The notes: a model not told the origin generated them from the sequence alone. DNA of 64,000 nucleotides from Candidatus Magasanikbacteria bacterium GW2011_GWC2_37_14 (GCA_000990355.1 LBSX01000007.1:441-64440); one strand, 5' to 3'; shown: positions 6,127-58,450, counted from the stretch's first letter. Numbers and translations are program-made.

Positions 6127-6205
6127 TTTTTCCCTCCCCTATAAGGGGAGGCCCCTCGTAGGGGGAGGAAAATAAAAAACTGCGATTTATATCGCAGTTT
6201 TTTAT
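6127..6205 (+). terminator. compound terminator: two GC-rich palindromes (ccctcccctataaggggagg; cccctcgtaggggg) followed by hairpin aaaaaactgcgatttatatcgcagtttttt
   Basis: Inverted repeats read directly after the clpP stop. The last hairpin has T/A runs on both sides and is bidirectional. Confidence 0.7.
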
Positions 6206-6396
6206 TTTCAACTATTTATAATAATTTTACCCTCACACCTATGTATAGGTGTTGGGGTTTATAAACACTTGAGTCACCCTTGGTCCTCCAAGGCCAAGGT
6301 GCTCCTAAGTAATTAGGAAAAGATCGAAAAGAACGTAGATTGGTTGCCCCGGAGCTGGGGCGAGATAGACGGCTTGGCGCCATCAAGAACGGAAGG

Positions 6397-7257
6397 TTAT
6401 TCGTCGCTACACGCGTCACCAACCCCGTTGCCGTCGGCGTCGGCCTGATCGGGGTTGTAATCGCAATTGCAATTGTCGTCATAATCGTCAATACCATCAC
6501 CATCGGAATCCCCCCAGGGATCAGTGATAGAATGGGGGGCGTTGGGGCAATAGTCGCAAATATCACCCAATCCGTCGTGATCCGAATCTTTTTGACCGGG
6601 ATTGTATTCGTAACTATTATTGCAATTATCTTCATCATCTCGGACACCGTCGCCGTCGACATCGGAGTCGCACGCGTCGCCCACCCCATCGCCGTCGCCG
6701 TCGTTCTGTTTAAAATAATCCCAAGGTCTTTCGTCCCCCGGTCCCTGGAGCTCCTCGAAGTTATGTAGCGAACTACAGTGACCCCAATCATCTTCGGTTT
6801 CATTGCGACACCCCATCACGTCAAATATATTGGGGCAGTTGTCGCAAGCGTCGCCGATGCCGTCGCCGTCCATGTCACCCTGATCCAGGTTGTCAATGCC
6901 CGGGCAGTTGTCTTCTGCATCGGGCAGGCCGTCGTTGTCGTCGTCGGCTTCACAGGCATCGCCCACACCGTCGCCGTCAGCGTCGGCCTGATTGTGGTTG
7001 CTGATCTTGGGACAGTTATCGCAGGCGTCGCCAACACTATCGCCGTCAGCGTCGGCCTGGTCGTAGTTGTCCACGGTTGGACAGTTTTCACATTTGTCGC
7101 CCACGCCGTCGTAGTCAGTATCGACCTGCGCAGGGTTGGCGATCTGCTCGCAGTTGTCATCATAGTCCACGACGCCGTCGCCGTCCGTATCCGGGACTTC
7201 GCACGCCGCGAACAACAGGGCCGCCAGCACCAGCACAAACCAATCGCACTGCTTCAT
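6397..7257 (-). CDS. G+C-rich secreted lipoprotein-like protein built of thrombospondin type-3 (Ca-binding) repeats
   Basis: The ATG for MKQCDWFVLVLAALLFAAC (lipobox-like) is preceded by GGAGG. It has 8 or more repeats of D-x-D-x-DG-x-G-D-x-CD-NCP-x(3)-N-x-x-Q. Third codon positions are almost all G/C. Confidence 0.7.
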   Translation of the reverse strand: MKQCDWFVLVLAALLFAACEVPDTDGDGVVDYDDNCEQIANPAQVDTDYDGVGDKCENCPTVDNYDQADADGDSVGDACDNCPKISNHNQADADGDGVGDACEADDDNDGLPDAEDNCPGIDNLDQGDMDGDGIGDACDNCPNIFDVMGCRNETEDDWGHCSSLHNFEELQGPGDERPWDYFKQNDGDGDGVGDACDSDVDGDGVRDDEDNCNNSYEYNPGQKDSDHDGLGDICDYCPNAPHSITDPWGDSDGDGIDDYDDNCNCDYNPDQADADGNGVGDACSDE

Positions 7258-7285
7258 CACACCCTCCGAGCAAAAGGTTCGCCCA

Positions 7286-7324
7286 AAAGCACGCCCGTGC
7301 CTCCGAGCAAGAACAAGAACAGAA
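7286..7324 (-). promoter_or_regulatory. conserved ~40-nt 5' leader element, copy A (aaagcacgcccgtgcctccgagcaagaacaagaacagaa on the plus strand)
   Basis: Identical to copy B at 9753-9791. It lies 25-30 nt upstream of the start codon of the TSP3-repeat gene. Confidence 0.6.
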
Positions 7325-7366
7325 CCAAAACTAACGCAAAGCGCAAAACTAACTAAATTCAAACTA

Positions 7367-7413
7367 CCAGCTTTTTGTAGCTGGGACCTTTCATTGTCAA
7401 AGAGCGAGAAAAG
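7367..7413 (-). promoter_or_regulatory. upstream architecture copy A: hairpin ccagctttttgtagctgg plus box TTGTCAAAGAGCGAGAAAAG (read TCTCGCTCTTTGACAA on the coding strand)
   Basis: The same hairpin-plus-box arrangement recurs at 9820-9868 upstream of the second GC-rich gene. On the coding strand the box contains TTGACA. Confidence 0.45.
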
Positions 7414-7462
7414 AATACAACAATTATATGCTTTTCTCATTCTTTAAACAAAATTCATTTCT

Positions 7463-7510
7463 TCGAGGGGGAGCCGAACACGCTTTCCAGCATGTCAGCT
7501 CCCCCTCGTC
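7463..7510 (-). terminator. hairpin terminator of the Cys-rich protein gene (cgagggggagc ... gctccccctcg)
   Basis: An 11-bp perfect stem downstream of the stop at 7625, followed by a T-rich run on the minus strand. Confidence 0.6.
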
Positions 7511-7624
7511 CGCAGTGTATAGTTACCACCATTCCGATTACTCGGTTTAGTGAATTTAAATCTCAAAGATCAATTAGCATTTAATTATACAGAGCGCTTA
7601 CTCTGTGTTGTCTATATTTGTAAA

Positions 7625-9724
7625 TTAATTGCACCAGGGGTCGAGCTGGTTGCACTGCCCATCGTCCCAGTTGCACAGGGCGGTGCAGGGGTTGCCATCG
7701 GGCAGGCACTTGTCCTGGTACACGCACTGGCCCGTTTCCGGGTTGCACGACCCGTTCTGGCAATTGTTACTCTTGCAGGTGTCCTCCTGGTAATGACACC
7801 TGTTGTTCCAGATGTTGCATTCGCCCATGTACATCACCGACTTACCTGTAACGGTACAGACTCGAGTGCCCAAGGTCGGACACTCCTCATGGGTGTCACA
7901 GGCCTCACAGCCCGGCACCGGCAAGTTGGTGCAAGCACCATTCTTATAATCACAGGCGTCGTCTGTACAGGGTTCGCCGTCGTCACACTTTTCCTGGAAA
8001 GCACAACTTCCAGTTTCCGAGTTGCAATAACCAGTTCCACAGGCGTCCGAGGAGCAGACGTACTCGTGCGTACGGCACCTATGCCCCCAGGCCTCACATT
8101 CCCCCGTGTAGGAGATTGCCAAGGAGCTGCCCCCGCACATCTGCGTTCCCGACGACGGGCACTGTTCGTGGGTGTCGCAGGCCACGCAACCTGCGACGGT
8201 CAGGTTCGTGCACGCGCCCGTGCTGTCGTCGCACGAATCGTCGGTGCAGGGGTTCTCGTCGTCGCACTTGTCGTTCTGGATACACCCTCCTTTCGTCGGG
8301 TTGCACTCAGCGACCTGACACAGACCATAGGCCTGACAAACTACGCCCGGGTAAGTGCAGACATGGTCCACACACTTGTTGTCGGTGCAGGGGTTCTGGT
8401 CATCGCATTTGTAGTCCCCGTCGCACCAGATCGGGTCGTTTTCGCACCGGTAGCCATTCTGGACTTCTGCGTCCGGAATGCAGATCTGGCCACCCCAATC
8501 ACACCGTTTATTGTTGGAGCACTTGTTGCCGTCATCGCTCCATTCACAGTAATCGTCAGTACAGGGGTTCCCATCGTTGCAGTCGGCGGTCACAAGACAC
8601 GGCACACAGCCGACCGTTTCCCGACAGCGCAGGCCCTGCCCGCAGATGGCGTCCGACGCCTTGTGGGTGCACACGCACAGCGAACCCTGAGGCTCGGCGG
8701 CGTCGATCGTACAACCCACTTCGTCATCTTCGCACACTGGTGGCGCGTAAAAACACTTGTGATCGGGCCCGCAAATATCGCCCGTACAAGGGTTGCCGTC
8801 GTTGCAGTCGCCCTCGTCCAGGCAGCACCCGGGAATCTTCTCGTTCTGGCACCCCTTCCCCTCTTCGCAGAAGTCGTTGGTGCACTCGTTGTTGTCGTCG
8901 CACGACACCTGAGCCTGCCCGCAACCAAGGTACAATTCGCACTTGGCCTCGGTGCACACCGAGCTGTCGCTCGGGCACATGCCATCCATGGGCAAGTGCT
9001 GGCACAGCCCGTTGCTGTCGCATAAGTCGGTGGTGCAGTTGATGCCGTCGTCGCAATCGGTCTTGGTCTCGACGCATTGGCCGTCTACGCACGCCACGCT
9101 GGCACACTTGGACGACGCGATGCATTCCGAGAAACCGTTCCCACACTTGACTTTCTGATGGATGCAACCGATCCCAACGACACACATGTCGATGGTCGTG
9201 AGTTCGCCATCCTCGCACAGCACGGGAAAGAACTGGCAACCAACGCCGGTCACGCACTTGGCCTGGTTGCACTCGTCGCCCAAACCCAAGCACGCGTTCT
9301 CGTTGACGTGACTGAAGTTGCAACCGGTCGCCGGCAAGCACTCGTCGGCCGTGCACGGATCGTCATCGTTGCAGGTGAGCGCCTTCTGCTGGCACCCGGC
9401 CTGCAGATCGCACTCGTCCATGGTACACGCGTTGTTGTCGTTGCAGGCGACGTGGTTCGGGGTATGGTAACAGCTACCATTGTCGCACCGCTCGATGGTG
9501 CAGAGGATGCCGTCGTCGGCGCAGTCGCCATCGAAGTCACACTCGGACGGGTGATTGTCCACCTCCACCTTGTCGACTTCAGCGACCTCCTCCACCACCT
9601 CGACTTCCTGGGCCACGTCGGCCGTACCGCCGTTGCCCGTGTCCGACGTGTTGACGGAGACGCCGCACGTCACGGACACCAACGCCACCAGCACCAGCGC
9701 GAAGAACTTCACGAAGCGGTTCAT
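7625..9724 (-). CDS. G+C-rich secreted cysteine-rich repeat protein (~100 Cys; repeats C-x-D-D/N-x-N-x-C-T-x-D-x-C resembling the Myxococcus cysteine-rich repeat family)
   Basis: The ATG for MNRFVKFFALVLVALVSVTCG (signal peptide) is preceded by GGAGG. Repeated motifs include CNDGNPCTDDYC, CDDQNPCTDNKC, CDDENPCTDDSCD and CDDGEPCTDDACD. The plus-strand ORFs here are antisense artefacts. Confidence 0.7.
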   Translation of the reverse strand: MNRFVKFFALVLVALVSVTCGVSVNTSDTGNGGTADVAQEVEVVEEVAEVDKVEVDNHPSECDFDGDCADDGILCTIERCDNGSCYHTPNHVACNDNNACTMDECDLQAGCQQKALTCNDDDPCTADECLPATGCNFSHVNENACLGLGDECNQAKCVTGVGCQFFPVLCEDGELTTIDMCVVGIGCIHQKVKCGNGFSECIASSKCASVACVDGQCVETKTDCDDGINCTTDLCDSNGLCQHLPMDGMCPSDSSVCTEAKCELYLGCGQAQVSCDDNNECTNDFCEEGKGCQNEKIPGCCLDEGDCNDGNPCTGDICGPDHKCFYAPPVCEDDEVGCTIDAAEPQGSLCVCTHKASDAICGQGLRCRETVGCVPCLVTADCNDGNPCTDDYCEWSDDGNKCSNNKRCDWGGQICIPDAEVQNGYRCENDPIWCDGDYKCDDQNPCTDNKCVDHVCTYPGVVCQAYGLCQVAECNPTKGGCIQNDKCDDENPCTDDSCDDSTGACTNLTVAGCVACDTHEQCPSSGTQMCGGSSLAISYTGECEAWGHRCRTHEYVCSSDACGTGYCNSETGSCAFQEKCDDGEPCTDDACDYKNGACTNLPVPGCEACDTHEECPTLGTRVCTVTGKSVMYMGECNIWNNRCHYQEDTCKSNNCQNGSCNPETGQCVYQDKCLPDGNPCTALCNWDDGQCNQLDPWCN

Positions 9725-9752
9725 CGTATCCTCCGAACGAACGTGTGGTCTC

Positions 9753-9791
9753 GAAAGCACGCCCGTGCCTCCGAGCAAGAACAAGAACAGA
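9753..9791 (-). promoter_or_regulatory. conserved ~40-nt 5' leader element, copy B
   Basis: Identical to 7286-7324. It lies ~30 nt upstream of the ATG of the Cys-rich gene. Confidence 0.6.
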
Positions 9792-9819
9792 AACCGGCAC
9801 AAAAACAACACCAAAATTA

Positions 9820-9868
9820 ACCAGCTTAAATGGCTGGATTAGCTAGGTTGTCAAAGAGCCGAGAAAAA
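9820..9868 (-). promoter_or_regulatory. upstream architecture copy B: hairpin ccagcttaaatggctgg plus box TTGTCAAAGAGCCGAGAAAAAA
   Basis: Paralogous to 7367-7413. The hairpin is followed on the coding strand by a U-rich tract, which is attenuator-like. Confidence 0.45.
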
Positions 9869-30131: not shown

Positions 30132-30947
30132 TTATTTAGTTTCTGGTAATTCAAAAATTTTTCCAAGGCCCGTTGGACTATAACCATTTTTTACTTCTGC
30201 TCCATCCAAATAATTATCACCATCACTGTCTGGATTAAGTGGATTGGTTTTCCAAATAATTACCTCATCACCATCACTTAATTCATCTTTATCTGTATCC
30301 CAATTATTGGGATCTGTACCAATTTCTACTTCTCTGGTATCATCCAGGCCGTCTCCATCTTTGTCAATTGGTTCACCAAAAAGCACTTGATCATCGGTTA
30401 TTTGTGAACCAATATCAGTAACAGTGTTATTTTCATTCCCAGTATTAACCACAGTATTATTATTTGCTTCTATTTGATTATTATCTATGTTATTAGTTGT
30501 ATCGGCAGTATTATTTTCCACCACAGCTGGTTGGTTAGAATTAATATATTTATTATAAGCCCACCAACCTCCCATTCCCAAACCACCCACAACCAAAACA
30601 ATCACCAACAAAGTAATAATTACTCTAGTGACTACTGGTTCTTTCAAATCATAGTTTTCTGTTGATTTAATAATTGGTGGAGTAGTTTCTTCTGGCATTG
30701 CCGAAAAAGACGGTCTACTAACCGGTATTTCTACATTATTAACTTCTGGCTGAACTTTTGGAGTAAGCACCCCCGCAGCCAAAGCACTGTTCCCTGCTCC
30801 TGGTTCCAGAGTAACTTCGTTTTCTTCGGTAGCAACCCCAGAAAACATATCTTCGGGCTCGCCTTGACCAAATGGAACAGGCTCGCCTACTGGCAAATTG
30901 CCAGGAATTCCCGAGGGATTTTTGGTATTGATTGGTTCATCAAACAT
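30132..30947 (-). CDS. membrane-anchored protein with TSP3-like repeats (paralog 2)
   Basis: DKDGDGLDDTREVEIGTDPNNWDTDKDELSDGDE...DSDGDNYLDGAEVKNGYSPTG. Confidence 0.6.
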   Translation of the reverse strand: MFDEPINTKNPSGIPGNLPVGEPVPFGQGEPEDMFSGVATEENEVTLEPGAGNSALAAGVLTPKVQPEVNNVEIPVSRPSFSAMPEETTPPIIKSTENYDLKEPVVTRVIITLLVIVLVVGGLGMGGWWAYNKYINSNQPAVVENNTADTTNNIDNNQIEANNNTVVNTGNENNTVTDIGSQITDDQVLFGEPIDKDGDGLDDTREVEIGTDPNNWDTDKDELSDGDEVIIWKTNPLNPDSDGDNYLDGAEVKNGYSPTGLGKIFELPETK

Positions 30948-30988
30948 ATAATTGTCCTGTCATTCCCGCGCAGGCGGGAATCTAAAAA

Positions 30989-31393
30989 TTATTTAACTAA
31001 TTTACCTGCACCTAATGGATTATAATTATTAATAATTTCATAGCCATCCCAATAGCCATCGTCATCAGTGTCTACCTTTGTTGGATCAGTTTTATAAACT
31101 TCTATTTCTTCTTTATCAGTTAAACTATCACCATCAGTATCAGAATCACGATTACTAGTGCCAATTTCTTTTTCTTTGGTATCCAAAATTCCGTCACCAT
31201 CCAAATCATTGGGATCTAATTTTAATTTTTCAAAAACTACTGTTTCCACTGGCTTAATTTTATTATCTAATACTACATTATTTTTATTCCTTAAAAGTAG
31301 CCAAAAACCAGCCAAGATTCCTGCTCCCAGTATTAAAACCAATAAACTAATTAAAATAATTCTTTTCATATTATTTTTTAAGTAGTAGGACAA
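30989..31393 (-). CDS. membrane-anchored protein with TSP3-like repeats (paralog 3)
   Basis: LDGDGILDTKEKEIGTSNRDSDTDGDSLTDKEE...DTDDDGYWDGYEIINNYNPLG. Its first codons overlap the end of the giant gene. Confidence 0.6.
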   Translation of the reverse strand: MSYYLKNNMKRIILISLLVLILGAGILAGFWLLLRNKNNVVLDNKIKPVETVVFEKLKLDPNDLDGDGILDTKEKEIGTSNRDSDTDGDSLTDKEEIEVYKTDPTKVDTDDDGYWDGYEIINNYNPLGAGKLVK

Positions 31394-34300
31394 CTCTCCA
31401 AAACATCCGCACTTACTTTCACATCACATTCATCAGTTCTAATCACCCCATCTGCATGGTCAACATCTACTGGAGCAATAATCGGCGCTGTATTATTTCC
31501 CCTAATCTTAAACACATACCAATACTTAGCCCGTGCATTACTACTAGTGCCCGAGGCATTACGAATACTAAAAGTACGGGTTGGTTTGTAAATTGAATAA
31601 GCTGGTATTTGATTTGCATGAGCCGTATATACTTCTACTTGCAAATTACTTCTCTTGGCGGGCCCACCAATAAAATTAGTCAAAGCACTCACCGTAAACA
31701 CATAATCTTTGCCAGCTCCTGCATCTACAGTAAAAGATTGTACATAAATTTTTGGAGTATGCACTTTGGCATGTACACAAACCAAACTTGTACAGCCATC
31801 CGGAACCCAATATTCATCTGCATTTTTAATTATTGTGCCAAAAGTTGTTGTTGGCAAACGATTGTGTGTCCATTCAGTCGGACTATTAGTTTTTATTACA
31901 TCACCCACAAAACCACCTAATTTATTTTCTTCTTCGCTCGTCCATTTTACTACTATTCTTACCGTGCTTGTTGGCACAGCTGGAGACATTATAACATCAT
32001 TCTCAATCCTAAGCGATTCATCATTAACTGGATAATCAAAAATATCACCATAACCATTTTTCCAAAAATCATTTGCAGTACCACCTCCCGAAACTTTGGT
32101 TTGCAAACCATTTTCATTAAAAAATACTTTATATTCATCTTTACACTGCAAATTTGTTTCTATACCCTTTGGTAAAACGTCTTCAACTGTAATTAATGAA
32201 CTTGATTTATAAAAATAAGCATAATTAGTAGGTACACCATTTTCATTAATATTTAATTTAATTTGTTTAAAATAATATAAATAACCTAAAACATTGGGAT
32301 AATTTCTATACAAACTAACCAATTCAACTCCATAAATACTGTCCCAATTAAACCCTTGCTCAATCATTGGATTTAAAATAGCAATCATTGGATTGGCACC
32401 ACCGTCTACTCTGTCCATTTCAGCACAATTTATACAATTATTTTGTAAATCCAGACAATTGTTTTCACAACTAAAATTTCCTTTATCATTAACATTACAA
32501 GACTTATTTGCTTCACCTACTACTTTGGTGGTAGGGTTATAAGTGCTACTTACTACCGTACCATCACTTTTTACATCACATTTTTCAAAAACTGGAGTGG
32601 TACTACTCACAATTACATCAATCTTACCATTACCACAATAATCAGTTGTTTCTTTAGTAAAGACTTTTTTACAATCACCCGAACACCAGGTGCAAATTTT
32701 GCCTTTGCCATATTCTGGTGTACATTCCAAACCATTTTGTGCTCCCATATCGCAAGCCTCTTTTAAATTTTCATCCACAATTCCGTTGCCACAATAATTT
32801 TCCTGGCCACTTTCTAGTGCGCAACTAATAGAACAGCCATCGCCATTTCTTGGTAAGCATTTTCCTTTACCAATTCCCGCGCAAGTATTATCAGTAGTAC
32901 AAGGTTTTTTGTTTTCACATTGCATACCGTCGTCACAAGTTTCACTACCATTCACTAATCCATCACCACAAAAAACAGTTGCTTTTAATTTACAATTATT
33001 TTGGCATTTGTCTGTATCTACATCATTGCCATCATCACACTCTTCCTGGCCAGCGTCTAGTACTCCATCACCACAATAAGAACCATATTTCTGACAATCC
33101 CACGAACAAGAATATTCTTTATTTTTGGCATAACTGGCAATAATCGGCACACAACGTCCTTTATATTCAGAGGTAGTTTTTACATCATTCAAAAAGTCAT
33201 TTACATTGCTGTAACCTGACAAACCCTCATCAATATTTATACTTTGGGTATTAATGTTACAATCATCATTTGTACGACAAACAAAATTAGTATTTAGGGC
33301 ACAATAACCTATTTTATCTGTACAAATATCATTTCTTTCCTTGGCCCAACCTGTTTTGTTGGCATCATTCAAATCCTGCAATGCCTGCATTAATATTACC
33401 GAAACTTCATCACAAGCATCACCAATACCATCACCATCAATATCATTTTGTAATGGGTTATAATTATTTGGACAATTGTCCTCTGTGCCACATTTTTCAT
33501 CTTTATCCACATCATTTTCTGCACAATTAGGATAATAATCACAAGCATTACCGAGTCCGTCACCATCCGAATCTGGCCCATTTGATTTTTTTAGTTGCAT
33601 TTCAGAAGGTAAACAAAAAGGCTGTCCCGCTGGACAAGAAGAACTCATAACACTGTTAGCATTTTTGGGACAATTATCCAAATCATTTATTATTTCGTCA
33701 CCATCACAATCTAAGCCTGGAAAACTCGAAAGATTACACTGTATTTTTAGTGGATCTTCTAAACCTAAATCAAAATTAATGATATGCGATTGTAAAGTAT
33801 TTATGTCTACCAACTTATCCAAATTATATTGATTAGCATAATTAAGCCAATTTCCTAAACCACTAATTAAACCACCATTTACATTAACAGAAGTCTCACT
33901 ACAATTACCTTGAAACACCCAATTCCCAGTTCTAATTGAAGCTTTGTTTTGTGCCAAAGGAGTAGTGGAAGTAAAGTCACACAACTCCAGCGGTTTATTA
34001 TTTGCATCTTTATCTATCAGACTATCTATACTACTATAAACAATATTATGAAAATTTCCACAATAAGCTTGATGTGGCCCCATACAAGCCACCACCCCAA
34101 CGCTATTTTCTCCCGCACAATGCCCATAAGTACCATTTAATTGTCCTTCATCACAAAACTCCGCACTTTCTTTTTCTCCATTACCACAAGTAAAATCCGC
34201 CTGGCAAGCACCATAACTCCAAGTACAAGTATTGGTACAAGTACGAGCCGCTTTGGTAGCACCGGCGCAAGCAGTCAAAACACCACCAATTTTTGTTTGG

Positions 34301-37300
34301 GCTGTTAATTCATTCTTTCCTGGTGGTTCACATTCTTCTCCTGGGGCGACAATACCATCACCGCATTTTTCGCCAAAAGCTCTAAAAGGAGTTTCACTAT
34401 TGCACCAAGGTGTGGTAGTAAAAGTACTAGTATTAATTTTTTCTTCCACAATATTACTACTTAGAGCAAAAAACTCTAATGGGGAATGTAATAAATAACT
34501 CTTGGTAGAAGAAACATAATTATATTCATAAATATTGGAAAATACCGGGCAATACACTGTGGAACTAGGGGCATACCAGCAAGTTTGTTTTTCTGCTCCC
34601 AACCCTGCATCTGTACAACTAGTCCAGGCATTTACTGGATCTTGTGGTAAAGTGCCAACCTTGGCTCCCAATGTATTATTCCAAGAAGGCCAGAGCGACA
34701 AGGTAGCTCCAGGAATAAAAGTCCCGCCTGGCAAATTTCCTTCAAAAGTAACTTTATTCAAATTACTAGTAAAATAACTAGCTAATTTATTTTGCATTCC
34801 CGCAATATCATTCAAACGACGCAAATCACGGAAAAATTTGGTTTTGGCATTGGAACAAATTCCCGAAGTATTTGTTTTAATATTGCCATTTGTTTCTCGA
34901 CATTCAAAGTCTGTATTACAAGAAAATTGATCATTAATATTATCTTGATTATCAAATAGTGTACCATCATTTAAACAATATTTATGATCGCTAATATTAA
35001 TATTAAATTCCAAAGAACCTAAAATTTGTTCCAAAACTTTTTTGGTATTGGCTTGTGCACCTTTGTTTAAACTTATTTGATAAATATTATTCCACAAAGC
35101 ATAATCATGGCCCGTGGTAGTTACCAAATTAAGTGCATTTATATAATAATTGTCACCATCTTGTACTGCATCAAAGCCGGCCAATTCTACTCTCTTGGCA
35201 TTTTGAGTATTGGGAAATCTTTGGGGACTGGTATACCAATCATAGGCCGATAAACGATCAGGATTTTGAAATATTTGTATACCAATTACATCATCGTTAA
35301 TGTTACTAAATAACAAATATCGGCGTAAGGTATCATCTGTAAGTGTAGGATTCATTATCTCTTCTACTTGTTCACCACCGCCAGTACATTGGTCAGCAAC
35401 ACTACTCGTTCCAACTCCACTACAAGTATCTGCTACCAAACTAGCAGGAGCAGCACCCACACAAGTATTAACAACTCCAGAAATTTTCCAAATAGGATCA
35501 AAAGGTACACAGTTCTCACCAGCATTACAACCAGTAGCGTCAGTACAAAAACGATAAGTTGAAGCATAATCTGGTGGATATTGGCCAGTTATTGTACAAT
35601 ATTTACTTTCAGTAACAAGATGTCTAAATTTGCAACTCTTATCCTTATAATATTGAAAATTATAAGCACCACCATATTTACTACAAGATACATACAAAGA
35701 ACTCTCACCAGGCAATACATACCAATCTGTTGTCGGGCAGTCAGTATCAACATTACAAACAGTTGACTGATTATTTGACTTTAATGAACAAGCACCTGGC
35801 TGTGCTACTGAATAATCAGGACAATCGGCACTAGTAGTACAACTTGTACTTGGACTGTGGACACATTTTCCAGGGGTGGCAGTGACTATTGGTGGACAAC
35901 TAGCATCAGTTGTACAACTTGTACTTGGGTTCTGGGCACACTGTCCGGGTACCACAACAATATTAGTCCCAGTATCTTTTTCAATTACTGGCAACAAATT
36001 CATGAATGGTAAGTCATCGGTGGTGGTGCCCGAACGACCTGCATCGGCACAATAACTTAAACTAAAATTATATTTATTATCCTTTAATGGCAGCCAACTA
36101 TCCTCGGTTTCTGGTTCTGGCCAAGGACGTTCACAAAATTTAGCAGTAAGCTCGGTACGTCCAGTAAATATTTTTCCAACCTGATTATTGGTAAGACTTA
36201 AATCATGGGTAACTTTGGCTTGAGCTACAGCTATCAACGACCCTTCTACTTGTCGTGAAGCAATATCTACACTGTCACTCGTGGCATCAAGTGGATTATC
36301 CGAATCTGGAATTGCAAAAACACGATTGTTTGCTGGGGCCCAATGCCAAGTCCAACCATAAGCTGGTGGTAAAGAAACAATTATTTGTCCATTTTCACTT
36401 TCGGCAAAAGAATCAAAAAATTCCGAAGTATTGGCTTTTTTATACCAAGCCTTTTCTGGACTAACTGTTACCTTGTTAATTTTACAAACATCTTTGCCTG
36501 TTTTAAATAACCAAACATCATCTAACTGGTCATTATTTTCTCCATCTTTGGCTCGGATACCTACTCCCCGCACGTCTTTAATGCCACTGTTTCCACCTTT
36601 TAAGATTACGGCATATTCGGTATCTTTTTCTAATAAATTATTTATATAAATTGCAATTGTGGTAGTATTTACAAAAGTTTCATTTCCTACAGTAATTTCT
36701 TCATAACGAACTTTTGACTGCACACCCACACTACCCTCACACCACACTACACTTGCAGGAGTAATAGTAGTGGCTACCGCTTGATCGTTGGTAAATAAAC
36801 TAACAAAAAATAATTTTATTTTCTGCCAAATGTTATTTAAAAAACCAAGCAATTTAGTATCTTGTTCCAAAGCATCTATTCCCATTAATTCATTAGCCCA
36901 AGCTGTACGATCAATAGTATTATTATTAGCACAATTATAGGTGGAACTAGTAGTGCCTTTTAGTAACACAATGTTATCTAATACTGTTTGTTTGTCAATT
37001 TCATTATTAAAAGTTGCTTCTAGATAAGTATTAAGACAAACTCCTTCACTACCCTCCTCAAAACCAGCACCATCAATTGGGTAAACTGTATTTCTTACCG
37101 GACGATAATAACAACAAGAATTTTTACCTACACCAAAAGTATTTACTTCTTGGGCACCATCGGCATCACCCGGACAATTATTATACCAGCCAGCAAAATC
37201 TCCATATTCTGCTTGGGTCTCAAATTCTTTATAACCACACTGTAAATAATATTTACCAGTACCAGTTTTTTGTTCTGCTGTTTGTAAACCTACTTTATCA

Positions 37301-40300
37301 CCATTAGCGTTGGTAAAAGAAATAGCTTTGGCATTAATTGGTGTATATTGGTCGTCAGTTGCTGGGTCTACCTCACCTTCACCAACAGCTGTGGCTACTT
37401 GCACGGGGTTTTCTCCTAAATTTTCGCCCGACAAACTAACTTCACAAAATCCATATTCACCCGAACCAGTTTCTCCATCACCACAGAGCGAAGGTTGTGT
37501 ATAATTTGGCGAAGAACCGCGCAAAGTACAATCTGGCCGACACCACTGTTCATTTGTGTCACATTTTAAATCACTCACATCTAAATTTTCCTCATCATAA
37601 TCTTCATTACAAAGATTTTGCAACAAACAGCTGCTATTACAAACTTTGTTTGCTGGTTGAATAGTAGTAAAAAGGGTATCACCTTCATTGTGAACTTTTA
37701 TTTTCTTGGCAACATCATCAATAATTTCACACTCTTCACCAGATTCTACTATATCATTGCCACAAATACTTATGGCGTTATTACAAGCCTGGGGAACATC
37801 TGCAGCTGTTTGTTCATCAGCTGCTTGTTCATCACACCAAGCCTGCGAAAGGGCTGTGCCAATATGTAAACAATTACTAGAACAACCTTTTTTCGTTGCC
37901 GTATCTTTGGTATCACATTCTTCACCCAATGTTACCGAACCACTACCACACCAAGAAACAGTTACCTGTCCAGCTGGTTGTGTAGATGCGGAACCTTTCC
38001 AAGTGCAATTATTACTTTTACAATAATTTTTTTGATCCATATCTCCTGGGTCACATTCTTCACCTAGAGCAGTAGAAACAAATCCATCACCACAAAGTCC
38101 AAGATTAATTCCAACCGTGGTAGTAGTTAAATTATTTCCCGTGTGCAAACAATTATAACCACAACCTGCTTCGGTGTCCGGGTCATCAATATCACAATCT
38201 TCACCAGCGCCTACTTCACCATCTCCACAGTAAGTTGGCACTTCAATTAATTTTTTGTCACTGCCCAGTGGCTTACAGACTGGACTGCAAAAAGAATTTA
38301 AAGGATCGCCAGTAGAAAAATTAGAAATAGTCGCTACTTCGGTAACATCAGCGGTCCATTCCCAACCAAAACTCCAGGGATTAAGATCTTGTCCATAGGG
38401 ACTACAACTATCGGGCTTGGTTTTTGGTAAAGACAAATATTTAGTTTTTTCTCCGATTAAAAACGAAGTAAAATTATTTGGCACTACTTCTACTTTTTCG
38501 GCTTTGCAAGGGGTGTCATCATTTTTGGTTCTAAATTTCCAGGCAAAAGCTTGTAAATCATTACCGACTTGGATTGAACCATTGGCTTTAAAAGCCCCAA
38601 TGGCTTTTATTTCACTTGTTAAACGCACTAAATACCAAGAATTTTTTACCAAATAAGGATCACTCACATTTATGCGCAAAGTATTGTAAGAAGACATGCT
38701 CTCATCAATTGAAATTAAATCATTCTGTTCATCCAATTTATCTTCGCTACAAAGTTCATCACCACACATATAAAATTCCAAACCATCAGCAAAAGTACTA
38801 GTTACCATCATTTGATTAAATTGCGCGCCAATACCAGCATTTATACAAGCTTCCTCACAATTTGGCCAATAAGAAATTACTTTCGGATCAGACAAATCCA
38901 CTACCAAAGTACTAGTGCCGGTAATAGTAGTTAAGTTATCATCAGTAACATTTTGTAAAGTATTGGTAGTGGCAGTAATTTTTACATTCCAAGGAGTGGT
39001 ATTGGACCACGCAATAATTTTTGCACGGCTATCTATATAACGCGGAGTTAATTTATTGTCACTAGGGTCACTCCCTCCCCGAGAAATTGTACTGCTTACC
39101 CAAGATTCATTATCCGTTTGCCAATTCCAGCCATATCCATCCACATTTAATACTGAACATTTTTGACTGCCCCGACCCCAAACATAATAAAAATAAGGTT
39201 GAGCTGGCGGATGCGGGTTAAAAGGATTAACCAAATCCTGTGGATGAGAAAAATCTTGCACCACACCCAAAAGATGAGTTACATAATTATCGGGAATAAT
39301 CCCAGCCGAAGCTAAAGTACAATTACCATCACCAGTCTTAAAATCAAAACAATAAGCAGTACCATCACTGCAGGGCTTGGTTTTTTTCAAAGGTTGATTA
39401 AATTCTACAAAATTACCCAATGTTTCTCTACGTTCGGCAGAAAAAATATTATCTTTTAATTCTACATGATACCAAGTATTAGAAACCAAATTTGTGGTAC
39501 CATCATGAATATACAAAACTGGATTATTATAAATCGGACCATTTACCTCTACTTCTTCTTTGTCGCTACAATCAATATCACCATTCTTTGCTTCAGCACA
39601 TTTGTATACTGTCACTTTGCCAACAAAATTATTTTTCATCGGCATGTTAAAACGCACCGCAATACTGGCATTCAAACAAGCATTAGTACCACCTTCCCAA
39701 TTTTGCCAAGGCACTGGTGTGGGAAAAGGCACAGTAACAGTTCCCTTACTCCAATTAACTTGGTCACAAACTTCCATTACTTCTGGCAAATGAGGAATTA
39801 AACCAGTAGTAAAACGCCACACATAACCAGCACTATCGGGCTGACCTTTACAACTTAGAGTACTTAATTTCCATTTACCAGCTTCTGCCCCCTCGCTACA
39901 ACACTGAAACCCAGGCATAGCTGTGTTACTATCTCGACAGTCATTAACCAAATAATTTACACTATTTCCAATTCTGTTATTTTTATCTTGTACTTTAATA
40001 GCACCGGTTTCCATGGTTAAGCCATTTTCATAAGGAATAATTGTTTGAATTTTTTCACCATCAATTGATTTGGAATAAGCAAAACCAACAGCATTTATTG
40101 CCTCACTATTTTCCAACCAACCACCACTGGTATTAGGCGACCAAAATTTAACCGTTGGTGTATCGGAAAAATTAATCCCATATAAATTTAAAAATTTTCC
40201 CGCTGGCAAAGGTGCCGGACCAGAAGCTGGAGCAATCGCACAAATTCCGGGCTGTGGCTCTCCTACCATCAAACCAAAAGTATTTTCTCCACTACTAGCC

Positions 40301-43300
40301 AAATTAAAATTATTTTTTAAAATTAAATTTACTTCATCTAATGTTTTTTCTGCTACTTGTGTTGAATGAATAAATTCTAACTTGTTAATTTTTCCATAAA
40401 ATAATCTAGAATTGTCATCTAATGAAGAAATAATATTACCTATTCTAAATGGCAAACTCTCTTTTTTTATTAAATCCGGATCTAAACCCAACTGGATTTT
40501 CGGAATAATTGGTAATGGATTACCCCCTTCACTTAAATAAACATTCATTTTATTATCCTTAATTTCAATCTTTAAATTATAAAGATTGGTAGAATTGTTT
40601 AATAAAGCCACATTCGCTCCATAATCACGCATCGACTTATCAAGAAAAACAGCCGAATGAATAAACAAATATCTTTTTACAATACCATCATTTTTTACTT
40701 GTTCATTTATATACACTTGTTCTTTGCCATCATTCCTAAAAAATAAAAATCTATATTTCATCCACAAATCACCACTTTCAATAAAACCAACATCCGATGA
40801 GGTTGTCAAATTATCTAGTTCAATATCAAATTCAATGGCAGTATCATTTAACAAAGAATAATCACCATTTGTGTCATTGTAAACTTTTGCTTCTGCCAAA
40901 GTATTTATACTATTACCAAGATTTAAACCAATGATATCCGCTAAATCAGCACTCTCGGTTACTATTTTATAAACTGTTTTACCACCAATAAATTTGGTAT
41001 CAATATTTTTTGGTATATTAACTATCACTTGAGTATCTTGCCAATTTTCCGAACACTGTGGTGGTAAACCAACAGTGGTTAATTCTTTACATTTAGTAGA
41101 ATCATAATTTATTGCACAAGCTTTGGCGTCGTTACTATTACCTGCCAAATAAACATGTCCACTAGAACCAAAATTAGACCCATAAATGGTAATTAAACTA
41201 CCAGGGGTTGTGGTAACTGGATCAATAGAACTAATAATTGGTGTTTTAACTGAACCATCACTCAAAATTTCAAATGGCACGCCATTACTATTTTCACCAT
41301 TCACTGTAGCTACTACCCCAACTTTACCTGCACTCAAAACTGGCACAAAAGACCTTACCACAGCATCAGACCAACCAGCACCAACAATTATGGCTTGTAC
41401 CCCACCAAATTTCATGGTGCTACCACTTTGGGTATCACCCAATCCTTTGCCCTGTATTACTACTTGCGCCTTAGATTCTGCTTCTCCTGGTGTAATCGCA
41501 CAAAGACCAGGACGTATAGCGTCATTTTTTAAAAACCAACCGTCATTTGGCCCTGGCATTACACCCCATTCAGGAGTAGTAAGCCCAGCAGTGTCATCAC
41601 TTGGTTTAATTGATTCGCCAGCAATCGTTAAAGTTTTAGCTGATTCTAATTTAATATCACTCAAAAAATTACGATCTAAATCAATATCAGCGGGCACTTC
41701 AATAATTACCCATTGGTCATGCCAAACATTTGTACCTTCTCCGCAATCAGCCAAATTTACATCTAGCCAATCTCCAGCACTTACTTCTCCATCTTGATTT
41801 TTATCTATTCCAAAACTCACTTTGCCTTTGGTACTACCAAAATTTCTTCCCAAAATTGTTACCCAATTACCAGCTCCCCCGTCCATTGGTTCTACATTTT
41901 CAATCAAAGGAAAGGGGCGACAAATTTTGTCATTAACATTTCCTGCGCCAACAGGGTCAATACATTTAAAACTGTAAGCGCAATCAAGGTCATCATGGCA
42001 CGAAGCCCCATCACCACCTCCACAAGAACCACCAACATCTGTCCCTGTTTCATTGCCATTTTTTATTCTATCTTTGCAATGAGCTCCAACCAACATATAG
42101 GTACTAGTAACTTCGGCAAACTTACTATCAATATCATTTCCTCGCAAAGTAAGAGAAATACGCTGTGGAACAATTAAATTTTCTGGAAAAAATACACGTT
42201 GACTAAAATTATAAGGATTATCTATAGGCGCATCCGAAGTGCTAGCAGGGCCATTAAAATAACCATAAATTCTCTCTCCTAAATTTTCAAAACTTCCATT
42301 ATTGAGTGTTAAACCTACATAACCAGCGCCACTTTCATCACTTTCACTGGTTCCAAAATAATATGCACTACCAACTGGCAAACGATCATCAGCTATCTCT
42401 TCTCTCACTCCACTTTTGTTTACCATTTCTACAACTAAGGGAGTTAAAATTGGGGCTAGACTATCTTTTACCGCACTCGTAGTTACGGTAAACTCTGCTT
42501 CGGCACTAAAATCTCCACAACTAGTTTTTAATTCCAAATTATAACCATCAATATCTTTGATATTGGGGCTAACAATTACTTGGTAAGTACCAGCTGGCAA
42601 ACAACTGGTGCTATCTTCACATTTTGTTTCACCAATATAAGTAGCCTGTATTAAACTATTGGCATCTGCCAACTCTCTACCCAAAACTTCAAAACTAAAT
42701 TCTTCGGTAGAGGTAACATTATTACGTAAAATTGTTAGATAATTTTTTATTTCATTACTACTCATGTTTTGCAGTTTTCTGCTAAATGTTACCCGAATAA
42801 CTGCATTATTCATTTGGGTATTGGTAGTTTTTGGGGTAATGCTTTGTACGACAAAATGTTTGTCTTCACAAGAACATAGAGTAGGAAATTCTCTGCAAAA
42901 AACACTCTCACATTCATCACGATTTTCCAAAACATATTTTAAATCGCGACAAGACAAATTGTCTCCATTGCCATCACCAAAACCTGTAGCGTCGGATAAC
43001 TGATTAATTACAAACTGAGCAATAGCCAAAGCTGAAAGAATAATCATTATACCAATCGCGGCATTAATTAAAATCTTTCTTGCCTGTCCAACTTTTTCTT
43101 CATTTCCCGCCGAAGTCATATAAACAAAACCACCATAAAGCATTAAGCCTAGGGCAATAATACCAAGTAAACCCAAAATAGCTCGGATAATCTGGGCAAT
43201 AATTAAACGGATATCAGTAGCTGGAAGATCTAAACTACCCCCGATTCTGTTTAAGCCAAAAGCATCTTGAGCAAAAACATTTGTTTTGAATAACAAAAAC

Positions 43301-43365
43301 ATCCCTAATAATAAAATTATGGAAAAGAAAATATTTTTTATAATTTTATTTTTACTCCAAAACAT
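31378..43365 (-). CDS. giant (3995 aa) secreted/surface protein: N-terminal signal plus two-helix membrane hairpin, Big_5-like Ig domains, many Myxococcus-type cysteine-rich repeats (CGDGxVxxGEECD) and TSP3 repeats
   Basis: Single uninterrupted ORF. Motifs read directly: CGDGEVGAGEDCD, CGSGSVTLGEECD, CGDGIVAPGEECE, CGDGVLDAGQEECDDGN, and DNCPNNYNPLQNDIDGDGIGDACD. Confidence 0.85.
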   Translation of the reverse strand: MFWSKNKIIKNIFFSIILLLGMFLLFKTNVFAQDAFGLNRIGGSLDLPATDIRLIIAQIIRAILGLLGIIALGLMLYGGFVYMTSAGNEEKVGQARKILINAAIGIMIILSALAIAQFVINQLSDATGFGDGNGDNLSCRDLKYVLENRDECESVFCREFPTLCSCEDKHFVVQSITPKTTNTQMNNAVIRVTFSRKLQNMSSNEIKNYLTILRNNVTSTEEFSFEVLGRELADANSLIQATYIGETKCEDSTSCLPAGTYQVIVSPNIKDIDGYNLELKTSCGDFSAEAEFTVTTSAVKDSLAPILTPLVVEMVNKSGVREEIADDRLPVGSAYYFGTSESDESGAGYVGLTLNNGSFENLGERIYGYFNGPASTSDAPIDNPYNFSQRVFFPENLIVPQRISLTLRGNDIDSKFAEVTSTYMLVGAHCKDRIKNGNETGTDVGGSCGGGDGASCHDDLDCAYSFKCIDPVGAGNVNDKICRPFPLIENVEPMDGGAGNWVTILGRNFGSTKGKVSFGIDKNQDGEVSAGDWLDVNLADCGEGTNVWHDQWVIIEVPADIDLDRNFLSDIKLESAKTLTIAGESIKPSDDTAGLTTPEWGVMPGPNDGWFLKNDAIRPGLCAITPGEAESKAQVVIQGKGLGDTQSGSTMKFGGVQAIIVGAGWSDAVVRSFVPVLSAGKVGVVATVNGENSNGVPFEILSDGSVKTPIISSIDPVTTTPGSLITIYGSNFGSSGHVYLAGNSNDAKACAINYDSTKCKELTTVGLPPQCSENWQDTQVIVNIPKNIDTKFIGGKTVYKIVTESADLADIIGLNLGNSINTLAEAKVYNDTNGDYSLLNDTAIEFDIELDNLTTSSDVGFIESGDLWMKYRFLFFRNDGKEQVYINEQVKNDGIVKRYLFIHSAVFLDKSMRDYGANVALLNNSTNLYNLKIEIKDNKMNVYLSEGGNPLPIIPKIQLGLDPDLIKKESLPFRIGNIISSLDDNSRLFYGKINKLEFIHSTQVAEKTLDEVNLILKNNFNLASSGENTFGLMVGEPQPGICAIAPASGPAPLPAGKFLNLYGINFSDTPTVKFWSPNTSGGWLENSEAINAVGFAYSKSIDGEKIQTIIPYENGLTMETGAIKVQDKNNRIGNSVNYLVNDCRDSNTAMPGFQCCSEGAEAGKWKLSTLSCKGQPDSAGYVWRFTTGLIPHLPEVMEVCDQVNWSKGTVTVPFPTPVPWQNWEGGTNACLNASIAVRFNMPMKNNFVGKVTVYKCAEAKNGDIDCSDKEEVEVNGPIYNNPVLYIHDGTTNLVSNTWYHVELKDNIFSAERRETLGNFVEFNQPLKKTKPCSDGTAYCFDFKTGDGNCTLASAGIIPDNYVTHLLGVVQDFSHPQDLVNPFNPHPPAQPYFYYVWGRGSQKCSVLNVDGYGWNWQTDNESWVSSTISRGGSDPSDNKLTPRYIDSRAKIIAWSNTTPWNVKITATTNTLQNVTDDNLTTITGTSTLVVDLSDPKVISYWPNCEEACINAGIGAQFNQMMVTSTFADGLEFYMCGDELCSEDKLDEQNDLISIDESMSSYNTLRINVSDPYLVKNSWYLVRLTSEIKAIGAFKANGSIQVGNDLQAFAWKFRTKNDDTPCKAEKVEVVPNNFTSFLIGEKTKYLSLPKTKPDSCSPYGQDLNPWSFGWEWTADVTEVATISNFSTGDPLNSFCSPVCKPLGSDKKLIEVPTYCGDGEVGAGEDCDIDDPDTEAGCGYNCLHTGNNLTTTTVGINLGLCGDGFVSTALGEECDPGDMDQKNYCKSNNCTWKGSASTQPAGQVTVSWCGSGSVTLGEECDTKDTATKKGCSSNCLHIGTALSQAWCDEQAADEQTAADVPQACNNAISICGNDIVESGEECEIIDDVAKKIKVHNEGDTLFTTIQPANKVCNSSCLLQNLCNEDYDEENLDVSDLKCDTNEQWCRPDCTLRGSSPNYTQPSLCGDGETGSGEYGFCEVSLSGENLGENPVQVATAVGEGEVDPATDDQYTPINAKAISFTNANGDKVGLQTAEQKTGTGKYYLQCGYKEFETQAEYGDFAGWYNNCPGDADGAQEVNTFGVGKNSCCYYRPVRNTVYPIDGAGFEEGSEGVCLNTYLEATFNNEIDKQTVLDNIVLLKGTTSSTYNCANNNTIDRTAWANELMGIDALEQDTKLLGFLNNIWQKIKLFFVSLFTNDQAVATTITPASVVWCEGSVGVQSKVRYEEITVGNETFVNTTTIAIYINNLLEKDTEYAVILKGGNSGIKDVRGVGIRAKDGENNDQLDDVWLFKTGKDVCKINKVTVSPEKAWYKKANTSEFFDSFAESENGQIIVSLPPAYGWTWHWAPANNRVFAIPDSDNPLDATSDSVDIASRQVEGSLIAVAQAKVTHDLSLTNNQVGKIFTGRTELTAKFCERPWPEPETEDSWLPLKDNKYNFSLSYCADAGRSGTTTDDLPFMNLLPVIEKDTGTNIVVVPGQCAQNPSTSCTTDASCPPIVTATPGKCVHSPSTSCTTSADCPDYSVAQPGACSLKSNNQSTVCNVDTDCPTTDWYVLPGESSLYVSCSKYGGAYNFQYYKDKSCKFRHLVTESKYCTITGQYPPDYASTYRFCTDATGCNAGENCVPFDPIWKISGVVNTCVGAAPASLVADTCSGVGTSSVADQCTGGGEQVEEIMNPTLTDDTLRRYLLFSNINDDVIGIQIFQNPDRLSAYDWYTSPQRFPNTQNAKRVELAGFDAVQDGDNYYINALNLVTTTGHDYALWNNIYQISLNKGAQANTKKVLEQILGSLEFNINISDHKYCLNDGTLFDNQDNINDQFSCNTDFECRETNGNIKTNTSGICSNAKTKFFRDLRRLNDIAGMQNKLASYFTSNLNKVTFEGNLPGGTFIPGATLSLWPSWNNTLGAKVGTLPQDPVNAWTSCTDAGLGAEKQTCWYAPSSTVYCPVFSNIYEYNYVSSTKSYLLHSPLEFFALSSNIVEEKINTSTFTTTPWCNSETPFRAFGEKCGDGIVAPGEECEPPGKNELTAQTKIGGVLTACAGATKAARTCTNTCTWSYGACQADFTCGNGEKESAEFCDEGQLNGTYGHCAGENSVGVVACMGPHQAYCGNFHNIVYSSIDSLIDKDANNKPLELCDFTSTTPLAQNKASIRTGNWVFQGNCSETSVNVNGGLISGLGNWLNYANQYNLDKLVDINTLQSHIINFDLGLEDPLKIQCNLSSFPGLDCDGDEIINDLDNCPKNANSVMSSSCPAGQPFCLPSEMQLKKSNGPDSDGDGLGNACDYYPNCAENDVDKDEKCGTEDNCPNNYNPLQNDIDGDGIGDACDEVSVILMQALQDLNDANKTGWAKERNDICTDKIGYCALNTNFVCRTNDDCNINTQSINIDEGLSGYSNVNDFLNDVKTTSEYKGRCVPIIASYAKNKEYSCSWDCQKYGSYCGDGVLDAGQEECDDGNDVDTDKCQNNCKLKATVFCGDGLVNGSETCDDGMQCENKKPCTTDNTCAGIGKGKCLPRNGDGCSISCALESGQENYCGNGIVDENLKEACDMGAQNGLECTPEYGKGKICTWCSGDCKKVFTKETTDYCGNGKIDVIVSSTTPVFEKCDVKSDGTVVSSTYNPTTKVVGEANKSCNVNDKGNFSCENNCLDLQNNCINCAEMDRVDGGANPMIAILNPMIEQGFNWDSIYGVELVSLYRNYPNVLGYLYYFKQIKLNINENGVPTNYAYFYKSSSLITVEDVLPKGIETNLQCKDEYKVFFNENGLQTKVSGGGTANDFWKNGYGDIFDYPVNDESLRIENDVIMSPAVPTSTVRIVVKWTSEEENKLGGFVGDVIKTNSPTEWTHNRLPTTTFGTIIKNADEYWVPDGCTSLVCVHAKVHTPKIYVQSFTVDAGAGKDYVFTVSALTNFIGGPAKRSNLQVEVYTAHANQIPAYSIYKPTRTFSIRNASGTSSNARAKYWYVFKIRGNNTAPIIAPVDVDHADGVIRTDECDVKVSADVLESCPTT

Positions 43366-48879: not shown

Positions 48880-48892
48880 TTTTAATTTACTG

Positions 48893-49722: not shown

Positions 49723-49875
49723 TGTAGACCTCCTGCCCACGAATCCCTCCCGCGTCGTGGCCCTGTGCCAAAACGCGTAAGAAAAACCAAATTCTTGGTT
49801 GCTCTTGGCGCTTTGGCACAAAAAAATAATGCATTACCCATTTTTCTCCTTATTTTTTAAAGAACAATTAACAAA

Positions 49876-57229: not shown

Positions 57230-58450
<1,221 letters not shown>

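Follow-up and report, generated by a model that had tools for sequence, protein, structure and literature searches.

The 64,000-nt stretch of DNA analyzed here (the window) comes from the Rifle aquifer genome of a member of the Candidate Phyla Radiation (CPR), Candidatus Magasanikbacteria bacterium GW2011_GWC2_3x, in which it lies on contig US42_C0007. Between about 6290 and 9800 it carries a GC-rich island of two genes in an otherwise AT-rich sequence. Gene A encodes a predicted lipoprotein of thrombospondin type-3 repeats, and gene B a Cys-rich protein of Dicty_CTDC repeats; both products are identical in GenBank to the accessions listed in Table 1, and for both, export and a role at the cell surface are predicted. 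We favor, with moderate confidence, the reading that the island is a surface-lipoprotein locus of long standing, specific to its lineage and subject to recombination, in which the module for expression and export is conserved and the GC-rich codon usage persists. Atypical GC content is routinely read as the mark of a recent horizontal transfer that fades with time; gene B stays at a GC content at third codon positions (GC3) of 0.63-0.79 at one locus across relatives, and some force appears to keep its GC-rich codon usage in place. In the literature searched, GC-rich Dicty_CTDC or Cys-rich genes are not described for CPR genomes.

Apparent persistence of GC-rich codon usage at a conserved locus

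The window has an overall GC content of about 0.35, and its host genes have a GC3 of 0.19-0.35. Within the island GC rises to 0.5-0.7, against 0.31-0.39 in the flanks, and the composition steps sharply at the gene borders. Gene A has a GC content of 0.57 and a GC3 of 0.65, gene B 0.60 and 0.79, and both are atypical for the genome in composition and in codon usage. For the same amino acids, codons ending in G or C make up 60-90% of those used in genes A and B, compared to 10-40% in a giant native surface protein of the window and 14 host genes, the Glu codons of gene A being an exception (0.23). Sharp steps of this kind, together with the unusual amino acid content of the products, might arise from a chimeric assembly or from proteins rich in Cys, Asp, and Gly. 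However, four contigs obtained from separate samples with several assemblers (MEGAHIT, IDBA-type, and Logan assemblies) match the window at 100% identity over both borders of the island, and the same arrangement is found in two diverged relatives, on contigs L012 and L020; the island is therefore not a misassembly or chimera. When genes A and B are recoded with host codon usage, their GC content falls to 0.42-0.43 from 0.57-0.60, so the contrast comes from synonymous codon choice and not from amino acid content, and the giant protein encodes similar residues at a GC3 of 0.21. An artifact of either kind is extremely improbable.

Gene B occupies the same locus, in the order HSP20-VanW-[B]-ClpP, in both relatives, and is GC-rich in both. 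The closer relative, L012, is about 81% identical to the window at the nucleotide level in DHH and ClpP. The more distant one came from a HMMER scan of 1.8e9 representative proteins, which found collinear gene B homologs at about 44% identity; one of these, P0252, lies on contig L020 in the order HSP20-VanW-(ArsB)-[B]-ClpP, which is the synteny of the window, with the gene of the A slot absent. Across the positional orthologs, amino acid identity of gene B ranges from 43 to 75%.

The atypical codon usage and sharp borders resemble those of a classical horizontally acquired genomic island. In other respects the locus differs from one. It is not absent from relatives, since gene B is at the locus in L012 and L020 and only gene A is variable, and the conserved gene B has not ameliorated in these diverged relatives. 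The immediate neighbors (ClpP, DHH, VanW, HSP20, and EngB) are housekeeping genes. No integrase, transposase, other mobility gene, or tRNA was found adjoining the islet, profile scans for integrases having covered part of the open reading frames (ORFs) of the window, and no att-like flanking repeats were found, the only long repeat being the leader that lies 5' of each gene. No donor-like homolog of gene A or gene B exists among 5.8e9 or 1.8e9 protein clusters, where no homolog exceeds 56% identity; gene B and its best outside matches share 31-45% identity, gene A and its best outside matches 40-56%, in both cases at the level of repeats. A phage origin was also considered and rejected, as none of the viral contigs encodes a relative of gene B.

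In the original prediction, the GC-rich islets were cargo of horizontal transfer, passed around a guild of organisms with related surface systems and duplicating repeat families of the host. The strongly foreign codon usage agrees with that view, and so does the different GC-rich gene body found in the gene A slot of L012 (see below). Transferred cargo is nevertheless doubtful. Gene B is a positional ortholog that remains syntenic and GC-rich although either its own third positions (L012) or those of the genomic backbone (L020) are nearly randomized, and the missing donor, the housekeeping neighbors, and the lack of adjoining mobility genes, tRNA, or att-like repeats likewise speak against the cargo view.

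Between the window and L012, gene B has 75% amino acid identity, a ratio of nonsynonymous to synonymous substitution rates (dN/dS) of 0.09, and GC3 values of 0.74 and 0.76, while the strong or weak (S/W) state of its third positions is near random (remaining correlation x = 0.11). Between the window and L020, the backbone proteins have amino acid identities of 52-68%, the backbone GC3 values are 0.19 and 0.23, and third positions are saturated (x = 0.09); at codons for conserved residues, gene B nonetheless has a GC3 of 0.76 in the window and 0.63 in L020. One ancient transfer, from a donor of very high GC content into the ancestor of the present Magasanikbacteria lineage, followed by slow neutral amelioration that is still under way and involves no special force, would explain the graded GC3 values of gene B (0.79), gene A (0.65), the L020 ortholog (0.63-0.66), and genes on contig L017 (0.32-0.53), as well as the AT-rich patches present within gene A. 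However, in a two-state model of decay, with the backbone used for calibration, the GC3 of gene B in the window and L020 should not exceed 0.44 even if the ancestor had a GC3 of 1.0, and 0.63-0.76 is observed. For two further CPR contigs, L014 and L015, whose Dicty_CTDC pair has 49% amino acid identity beside a neighboring Wzy gene with 51%, the model predicts at most 0.63, and the observed GC3 is 0.80. The near-random third positions of gene B in the window and L012 also sit poorly with such decay, both copies still being at 0.75. For that last pair, decay from an ancestral GC3 of 0.95 is predicted to give 0.70 (bootstrap 0.63-0.75) against the observed 0.75, so that ancestors of 0.95-1.0 are only marginally excluded. 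We regard an ancient transfer with neutral decay as improbable.

Shared 5' module and the gene A slot

Genes A and B are each preceded by a copy of the same 5' module (Table 1). Its leader core holds a Shine-Dalgarno (SD)-like GGAGG inside a hairpin, and this hairpin is predicted in all three leaders examined, those of genes A and B and that of the gene in the A slot of L012, designated gene X. A pattern search with the leader core gave two matches, with 0 expected by chance. In Rfam, searched by gathering threshold and by E-value, the island and its leaders yield only sub-threshold, terminator-like matches, and the leader is not a known RNA family. A diverged version of the module precedes the gene B ortholog in L020. 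In both leaders of the window the GGAGG is followed 7 nt on by a GTG (7257-7292 and 9722-9760), which begins an upstream ORF in gene A and is in frame with the coding sequence in gene B. As read from the sequence, the upstream ORF of gene A comprises 11 codons, from GTG at 7292 to TGA at 7257, and overlaps the ATG as TGATG. For gene B, the in-frame GTG at 9760 is an alternative start that would add 12 residues to give 711 aa, and is the start used in the European Nucleotide Archive (ENA) gene call.

Contig L012 was recovered by a search of metagenome contigs with a 21-mer from the leader. The other five of the six matches were chance occurrences in GC-rich contigs, as was the single match among genome contigs, in an Actinomycetes genome of 74% GC. 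In L012 the gene B ortholog is kept, and the body of gene A is replaced by that of gene X, a GC-rich orphan of 418 aa with a lipobox, for which a homolog search returned only short CTDC-like motif matches. Homology between the window and L012 stops about 12 codons into the coding sequence and restarts within about 15 nt of the stop codon, and the 3' untranslated region (UTR) of gene A is conserved downstream of the unrelated gene X. In an alignment of the three leaders, that of gene X combines segments of the A-type and B-type leaders of the window in a mosaic. Because a different GC-rich body stands in this slot in L012, some exchange at the locus is real, and to this extent the exchange proposed in the original prediction is borne out. 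As far as the alignments indicate, the body in the gene A slot can be replaced while the leader before it and the 3' UTR after it are conserved, and the slot appears to be younger than gene B, the A/X gene being absent in the distant relative L020. An "empty slot" in L020, with the gene A leader fused to the 3' UTR, was considered and rejected, since the alignment fits the 3'-flank hairpins of gene B better.

In variable surface lipoprotein families such as Vlp and Vsa of Mycoplasma, the 5' end and signal peptide are conserved and the bodies diverge. The island resembles these families: the promoter region, the 5' UTR, and the start of a related signal peptide are common to genes A and B, whose mature parts show no relationship to each other; close relatives have different bodies; and gene X has a mosaic leader made up of the two window types. 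It differs in that the codon usage of the bodies here is foreign to the genome. Neither a phase-variation switch (homopolymer tract or invertase site) nor silent cassettes were noticed in the window, no dedicated search having been made. Integron-like cassettes were rejected as an explanation, as the repeats sit 5' of each gene within the leader and no integrase is nearby.

Our proposed mechanism for the old resident locus is as follows. The region of 6.3-9.8 kb would be a two-gene locus for exported extracellular repeat proteins, each expressed and exported by means of its own copy of the 5' module, consisting of a promoter-like box, hairpins, the 39-nt leader, a sequestered SD-like GGAGG, a second SD, and a signal peptide. 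Gene B would be a long-term resident between VanW and ClpP, remaining GC-rich down to relatives with 43% amino acid identity, and the younger gene A slot would exchange its body between the conserved leader and 3' UTR.

Table 1. Coordinates of the features discussed, counted from the first nucleotide of the window.
Feature	Position	Strand	Description	GenBank
Gene A	6397..7257	minus	286-aa predicted lipoprotein, ~11 thrombospondin type-3 repeats	KKQ27614.1
Gene B	7625..9724	minus	699-aa predicted exported protein, 14.4% Cys, at least 13 Dicty_CTDC repeats	KKQ27615.1
Gene A 3' UTR	6212..6396	minus	Structured, RNA fold z-score -3.4; 3' edge of swapped segment	
Gene A 5' module	7258..7400	minus	GCTCTTTGACAA box, CCAGC/GCTGG hairpin, leader core, second GGAGG 5 nt before ATG	
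Leader core copy 1	7286..7324	minus	39 nt identical to copy 2; GTTCT repeats; repeat family D14	
Gene B 5' module	9725..9865	minus	Same architecture as gene A module	
Leader core copy 2	9754..9792	minus	Upstream of gene B	
VKOR-family gene	13909..14316	minus	Second GC-rich islet, GC3 0.67; Pfam VKOR 33.7 bits (cutoff 27.5)	
Two native AT-rich genes	30132..31393	minus	271-aa and 134-aa products with TSP3_bac repeats; next genes downstream of giant	
Giant surface protein	31378..43365	minus	3995 aa, GC3 about 0.21-0.22, AT-rich native	
Giant TIGR02232/DUF4215 repeats	32686..33075 (aa 3431-3560)	minus	More copies at 34087-34365 and 37663-38229	
Giant TSP_3 repeats	33409..33708 (aa 3220-3319)	minus	Host codon usage; DNA repeat family D1	

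Protein families of the island and of the giant native protein

Gene A matches the Pfam thrombospondin type-3 model TSP_3 (PF02412) with 136.1 bits and an E-value of 2.9e-40 (gathering cutoff 25 bits). A strict motif finds seven repeat units, and a hidden Markov model (HMM) built from its own repeats finds eleven. Its matches to solved structures, including thrombospondin-2 (1yo8, E 3.7e-47) and COMP (3fby), range from E 1e-47 to 1e-41. The N-terminus, MKQCDWFVLVLAALLFAAC, satisfies a PROSITE-type lipobox rule (PS51257-type: Lys or Arg in the first seven residues, an uncharged stretch, [LIVMFWSTAG]2-[LIVMFYSTAGCQ]-[AGS]-C, and the Cys at position 15-35), with LVLAALLFAAC containing the canonical lipobox LLFAAC and the Cys at position 19. 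Gene A is thus as originally described, a GC-rich lipoprotein of TSP3-type repeats so far as profile and lipobox can predict. The protein would be a membrane-anchored lipoprotein whose mature part consists almost wholly of DxDxDGxxDxxD repeats with paired Cys, a "calcium wire", and homology to the solved calcium-loaded structures predicts that these repeats bind Ca2+.

With the type-3 region of thrombospondins and COMP (PDB 1yo8, 3fby, and 1ux6) gene A shares the DxDxDGxxDxxD-NCP..N..Q repeats and paired Cys, and by homology it is expected to wrap Ca2+ ions in a disulfide-tied wire. It differs in being a bacterial lipoprotein of repeats only, without the EGF modules, C-terminal lectin-like domain, or coiled coil of those proteins. 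Its best match in NCBIfam is MtsC of Myxococcus (equivalog model NF047638), a MYXO-CTERM protein of cell-cell cohesion, at 161.8 bits, far under the cutoff of 350 bits. MtsC likewise carries a TSP3 repeat array on a bacterial surface protein, but the C-terminus of gene A (...GVGDACSDE) shows no hydrophobic tail and no MYXO-CTERM sorting signal, and anchoring by an N-terminal lipid is predicted instead.

Gene B contains 101 Cys, or one per 6.9 residues, close to the value originally noted, and 13 cores of the form C-x4-6-C-T-x-D-x-C (CxDxNxCTxDxC). It matches Pfam Dicty_CTDC (PF00526) with 108.1 bits and an E-value of 1.7e-31 (cutoff 27 bits), over 7-10 profile stretches of 24-aa Cys-rich units, and across its homolog family as a whole the consensus is an alternation of two repeat types. 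The C-terminal 93-aa module is duplicated in tandem, the copies being 54% identical. Gene B has the profile-matched repeats and CxDxNxCTxDxC cores of the extracellular-matrix and spore-coat repeat proteins of Dictyostelium (PF00526), from which it differs in being bacterial, in having an N-terminal signal peptide, and in its duplicated Cys-rich module. Dicty_CTDC is listed among the repeat families without known structure (PMC8078820), and no sequence homolog of gene B was found in the PDB. An AlphaFold2 (AF2) model takes the form of a chain of beta-hairpins, with a mean pLDDT of 65 and values of 85-94 in the repeat regions. The best Foldseek match of this model is the heavy chain of the Entamoeba Gal/GalNAc lectin, the Cys-rich stalk of an adhesin (E 9e-6), at low TM-scores, both proteins being extended rods. 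The model suggests that gene B may form an extended, disulfide-stapled extracellular rod of stacked beta-hairpins and may serve as a matrix or adhesin stalk element.

The giant native protein begins with a T4SS_pilin-like N-terminus, followed by TIG and Big_5 domains, about nine TIGR02232/DUF4215 repeats, and three TSP_3 repeats. It contains the two motifs on which the original prediction based its comparison, at aa 3295-3319 and 3431-3447, in host codon usage (GC3 0.22), as had been stated. That prediction went on to assign the repeats of genes A and B to the same families as those of the giant, TSP_3 and Myxococcus-type respectively, and only the first of these assignments survives profile searches. 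Scanned alone, aa 3201-3330 of the giant match TSP_3 over three repeats with 39 bits and an E-value of 6.4e-10 (cutoff 25 bits); a Pfam scan of the whole 3995-aa protein does not report the domain. The gene A repeat HMM finds three weak matches in the giant, and a tblastn search with gene A against it gives E 1e-8. The two genes directly downstream of the giant match TSP3_bac (Pfam PF18884) with 39.1 and 33.2 bits at a GC3 of 0.24 and 0.19. TSP3-type repeats, with predicted Ca binding, are thus a recurring native element, present as TSP_3 in the giant and as TSP3_bac in its neighbors.

For the Cys-rich repeats, the matches run the other way. The Myxococcus-type repeat (TIGR02232; DUF4215, PF13948) is acidic, Cys-rich, and short, and the giant scores 31 bits against TIGR02232 (cutoff 20.8) and 28.6 bits against DUF4215 (cutoff 27, on the fragment aa 3401-3660), with nine cores found by regular expression. 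It is not the repeat of gene B, and the profiles match in neither direction. Gene B has no match to TIGR02232 (NCBIfam, E up to 0.01) or to DUF4215 (Pfam, E up to 10), and an HMM built from the repeats of the giant reaches at best -0.8 bits on it. Conversely, the Cys-rich fragments of the giant have no Dicty_CTDC match at E up to 10 and score at best -2.6 bits with the gene B repeat HMM, and hhalign of the two repeat types gives a probability of 6.6% over one aligned column. On these comparisons of sequence profiles, gene B and the giant have Cys-rich repeats of two different families, the outcome that the original prediction had itself named as refuting it, and which holds here for the Cys-rich repeats.

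The transferred-cargo view draws support from the TSP3-type repeats common to gene A, the giant, and its two neighbors, from MtsC of Myxococcus as the best NCBIfam match of gene A, and from the abundance of Dicty_CTDC and TSP_3 in GC-rich, Myxococcota-like genomes, where by the names of matches and in GC-rich contig L018 they are compositionally native. Yet sharing TSP_3 is weak evidence, because gene A has matches in over 6000 proteins spread across many phyla and because its repeats are no closer to those of the giant (36-50% identity) than to those of outside proteins (40-56%), and the Cys-rich families differ altogether. What stands of the claim that the islets encode members of the organism's own surface-protein repertoire is the broad class: the products of genes A and B, like the giant, are repeat-built, rich in Cys and Asp, and predicted to be exported. 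Recently transferred cargo is the weaker reading, and we think it unlikely.

The old resident locus has evidence against it as well. Neutral decay is only marginally excluded for the window and L012, between which synonymous sites of the backbone are unsaturated. The proportion of synonymous differences (pS) of gene B in that pair, 0.69, exceeds that of the backbone (0.41-0.59), which fits allele replacement, and the positional orthology may reflect allele replacement from an unsampled GC-rich reservoir. Genes elsewhere that are native-like (Dicty_CTDC genes of the low-GC contig L005, GC3 0.36-0.38) or intermediate (L017, 0.32-0.53) fit stages of amelioration, the Cys-rich repeats of the giant do without GC-rich codons, and the argument for persistence rests on few sequences. 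On the side of the proteins, gene B lacks a canonical lipobox, having VSVTC with Thr at position -1, its structural model is only partly confident, and the location and production of the proteins, their Ca binding, and their disulfides are predictions from sequence or model. Lipoboxes are found in gene A, in gene X of L012, and in several CTDC and TSP3 homologs from other CPR contigs.

Related genes in other contigs and further elements of the window

Dicty_CTDC genes with a GC3 of 0.70-0.85 beside neighbors at 0.3-0.5 occur on contigs L006, L014, and L015, labeled Magasanikbacteria or Azambacteria, and on L019, which is unlabeled and in which the gene has AT-rich flanks. A wider and more tentative proposal can be built on these: a CPR class of exported, Cys-rich, mostly lipid-anchored repeat proteins might keep its own GC-rich codon dialect, with a GC3 of 0.63-0.85 in genomes at 0.2-0.5. 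Dicty_CTDC and TSP3 proteins would belong to this class, along with orphans like gene X and possibly VKOR; it would be present in Magasanikbacteria and might extend further across CPR. Under this proposal the dialect outlasts the saturation of synonymous sites, and a gene-specific force must therefore act. Such a force could be GC-biased gene conversion acting on surface-protein loci that recombine constantly, selection for codons that are rare in the host and slow the translation of exported, disulfide-rich proteins, or continual allele replacement from a hidden GC-rich reservoir. The sequences available for polarizing substitutions, namely the intragenic 93-aa duplicates and a third taxon, are both too diverged for that purpose. 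If the proposal holds, composition-based island calling would mislabel a class of long-resident CPR surface-protein genes, and a strong local force on base composition would be at work in tiny CPR genomes. Lipoproteins that bind calcium, are stapled by disulfides, and have swappable bodies would be plausible mediators of cell-to-cell attachment for episymbiotic CPR bacteria.

On L006, L014, and L015 the GC-rich Dicty_CTDC clusters adjoin genes for Wzy_C (O-antigen-ligase-like), GT4 glycosyltransferase, and GHL15, and L014 and L015 each have four or five consecutive GC-rich genes. The gene neighborhood hints that these Dicty_CTDC proteins may be glycosylated or belong to a surface-layer locus. 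L019 carries a collinear gene B homolog of 683 aa, with 44% identity and a GC3 of 0.82, at a different locus; by eye, it directly follows an apparent CTP-synthase C-terminus, and its GC-rich tract extends about 130 nt past the stop codon.

A second GC-rich islet in the window (13400-15500) lies 4 kb from the island and adjoins a tRNA-Asp gene (14587-14661). Besides a VKOR-family gene it has unassigned GC-rich ORFs at 13465-13839 and 15032-15481, the latter with an N-terminal transmembrane helix. Since VKOR proteins act in disulfide-bond formation, its product may work together with the Cys-rich exported proteins. Two further GC-rich patches, 49450-49800 and 56591-57109 (GC 0.56-0.67; ORF GC3 0.54), have no Pfam or Rfam match; the first is next to a cluster of tRNA genes, with a tRNA-like remnant at 48852-48881 among them.

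Next to the island, window positions 9976-10290 (plus strand) and L020 positions 7302-7760 hold a conserved promoter-to-terminator unit, inverted relative to the flanking genes. In the window it has a perfect TTGACA-17-TATAAT promoter (10023-10051), a predicted transcript of about 230 nt, and a terminator (10265-10285). Its blocks are 78-83% identical between the window and L020, compared to 70-73% for the flanking protein genes. With no match to an Rfam family, the unit is probably an undescribed small RNA gene. On L012, an extra AT-rich gene (747-1112) between DHH and ClpP encodes a four-helix bundle like that of the 23S rRNA-intervening-sequence and Avd proteins (PF05635, 101 bits, with a weak bAvd-like match); no reverse transcriptase is visible on this short contig.

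Palindromes resembling repetitive extragenic palindromic (REP) elements, TTCCCTCCCCTATAAGGGGAGG, occur downstream of genes at 6130-6151, 54149-54229, and 58255-58276, and at 11107-11149 of assembly L001. The copy after ClpP has about 43 extra nt in L001 and in L012, so the element is variable in length. Two families of hairpin-containing intergenic repeats, GTCATTCCCGCGCAGGCGGGAATC and TGTCATCCTGAACTTGTTTCAGGATC, each about 80% identical, form the pairs 30945-30993 with 62819-62867 and 58452-58495 with 61089-61132. Finally, the giant and the adjacent native protein of 723 aa (43378-45549) both begin with a T4SS_pilin/TrbC-like domain followed by Big_5, a shared architecture that suggests two paralogous surface proteins with a pilin-type anchor.

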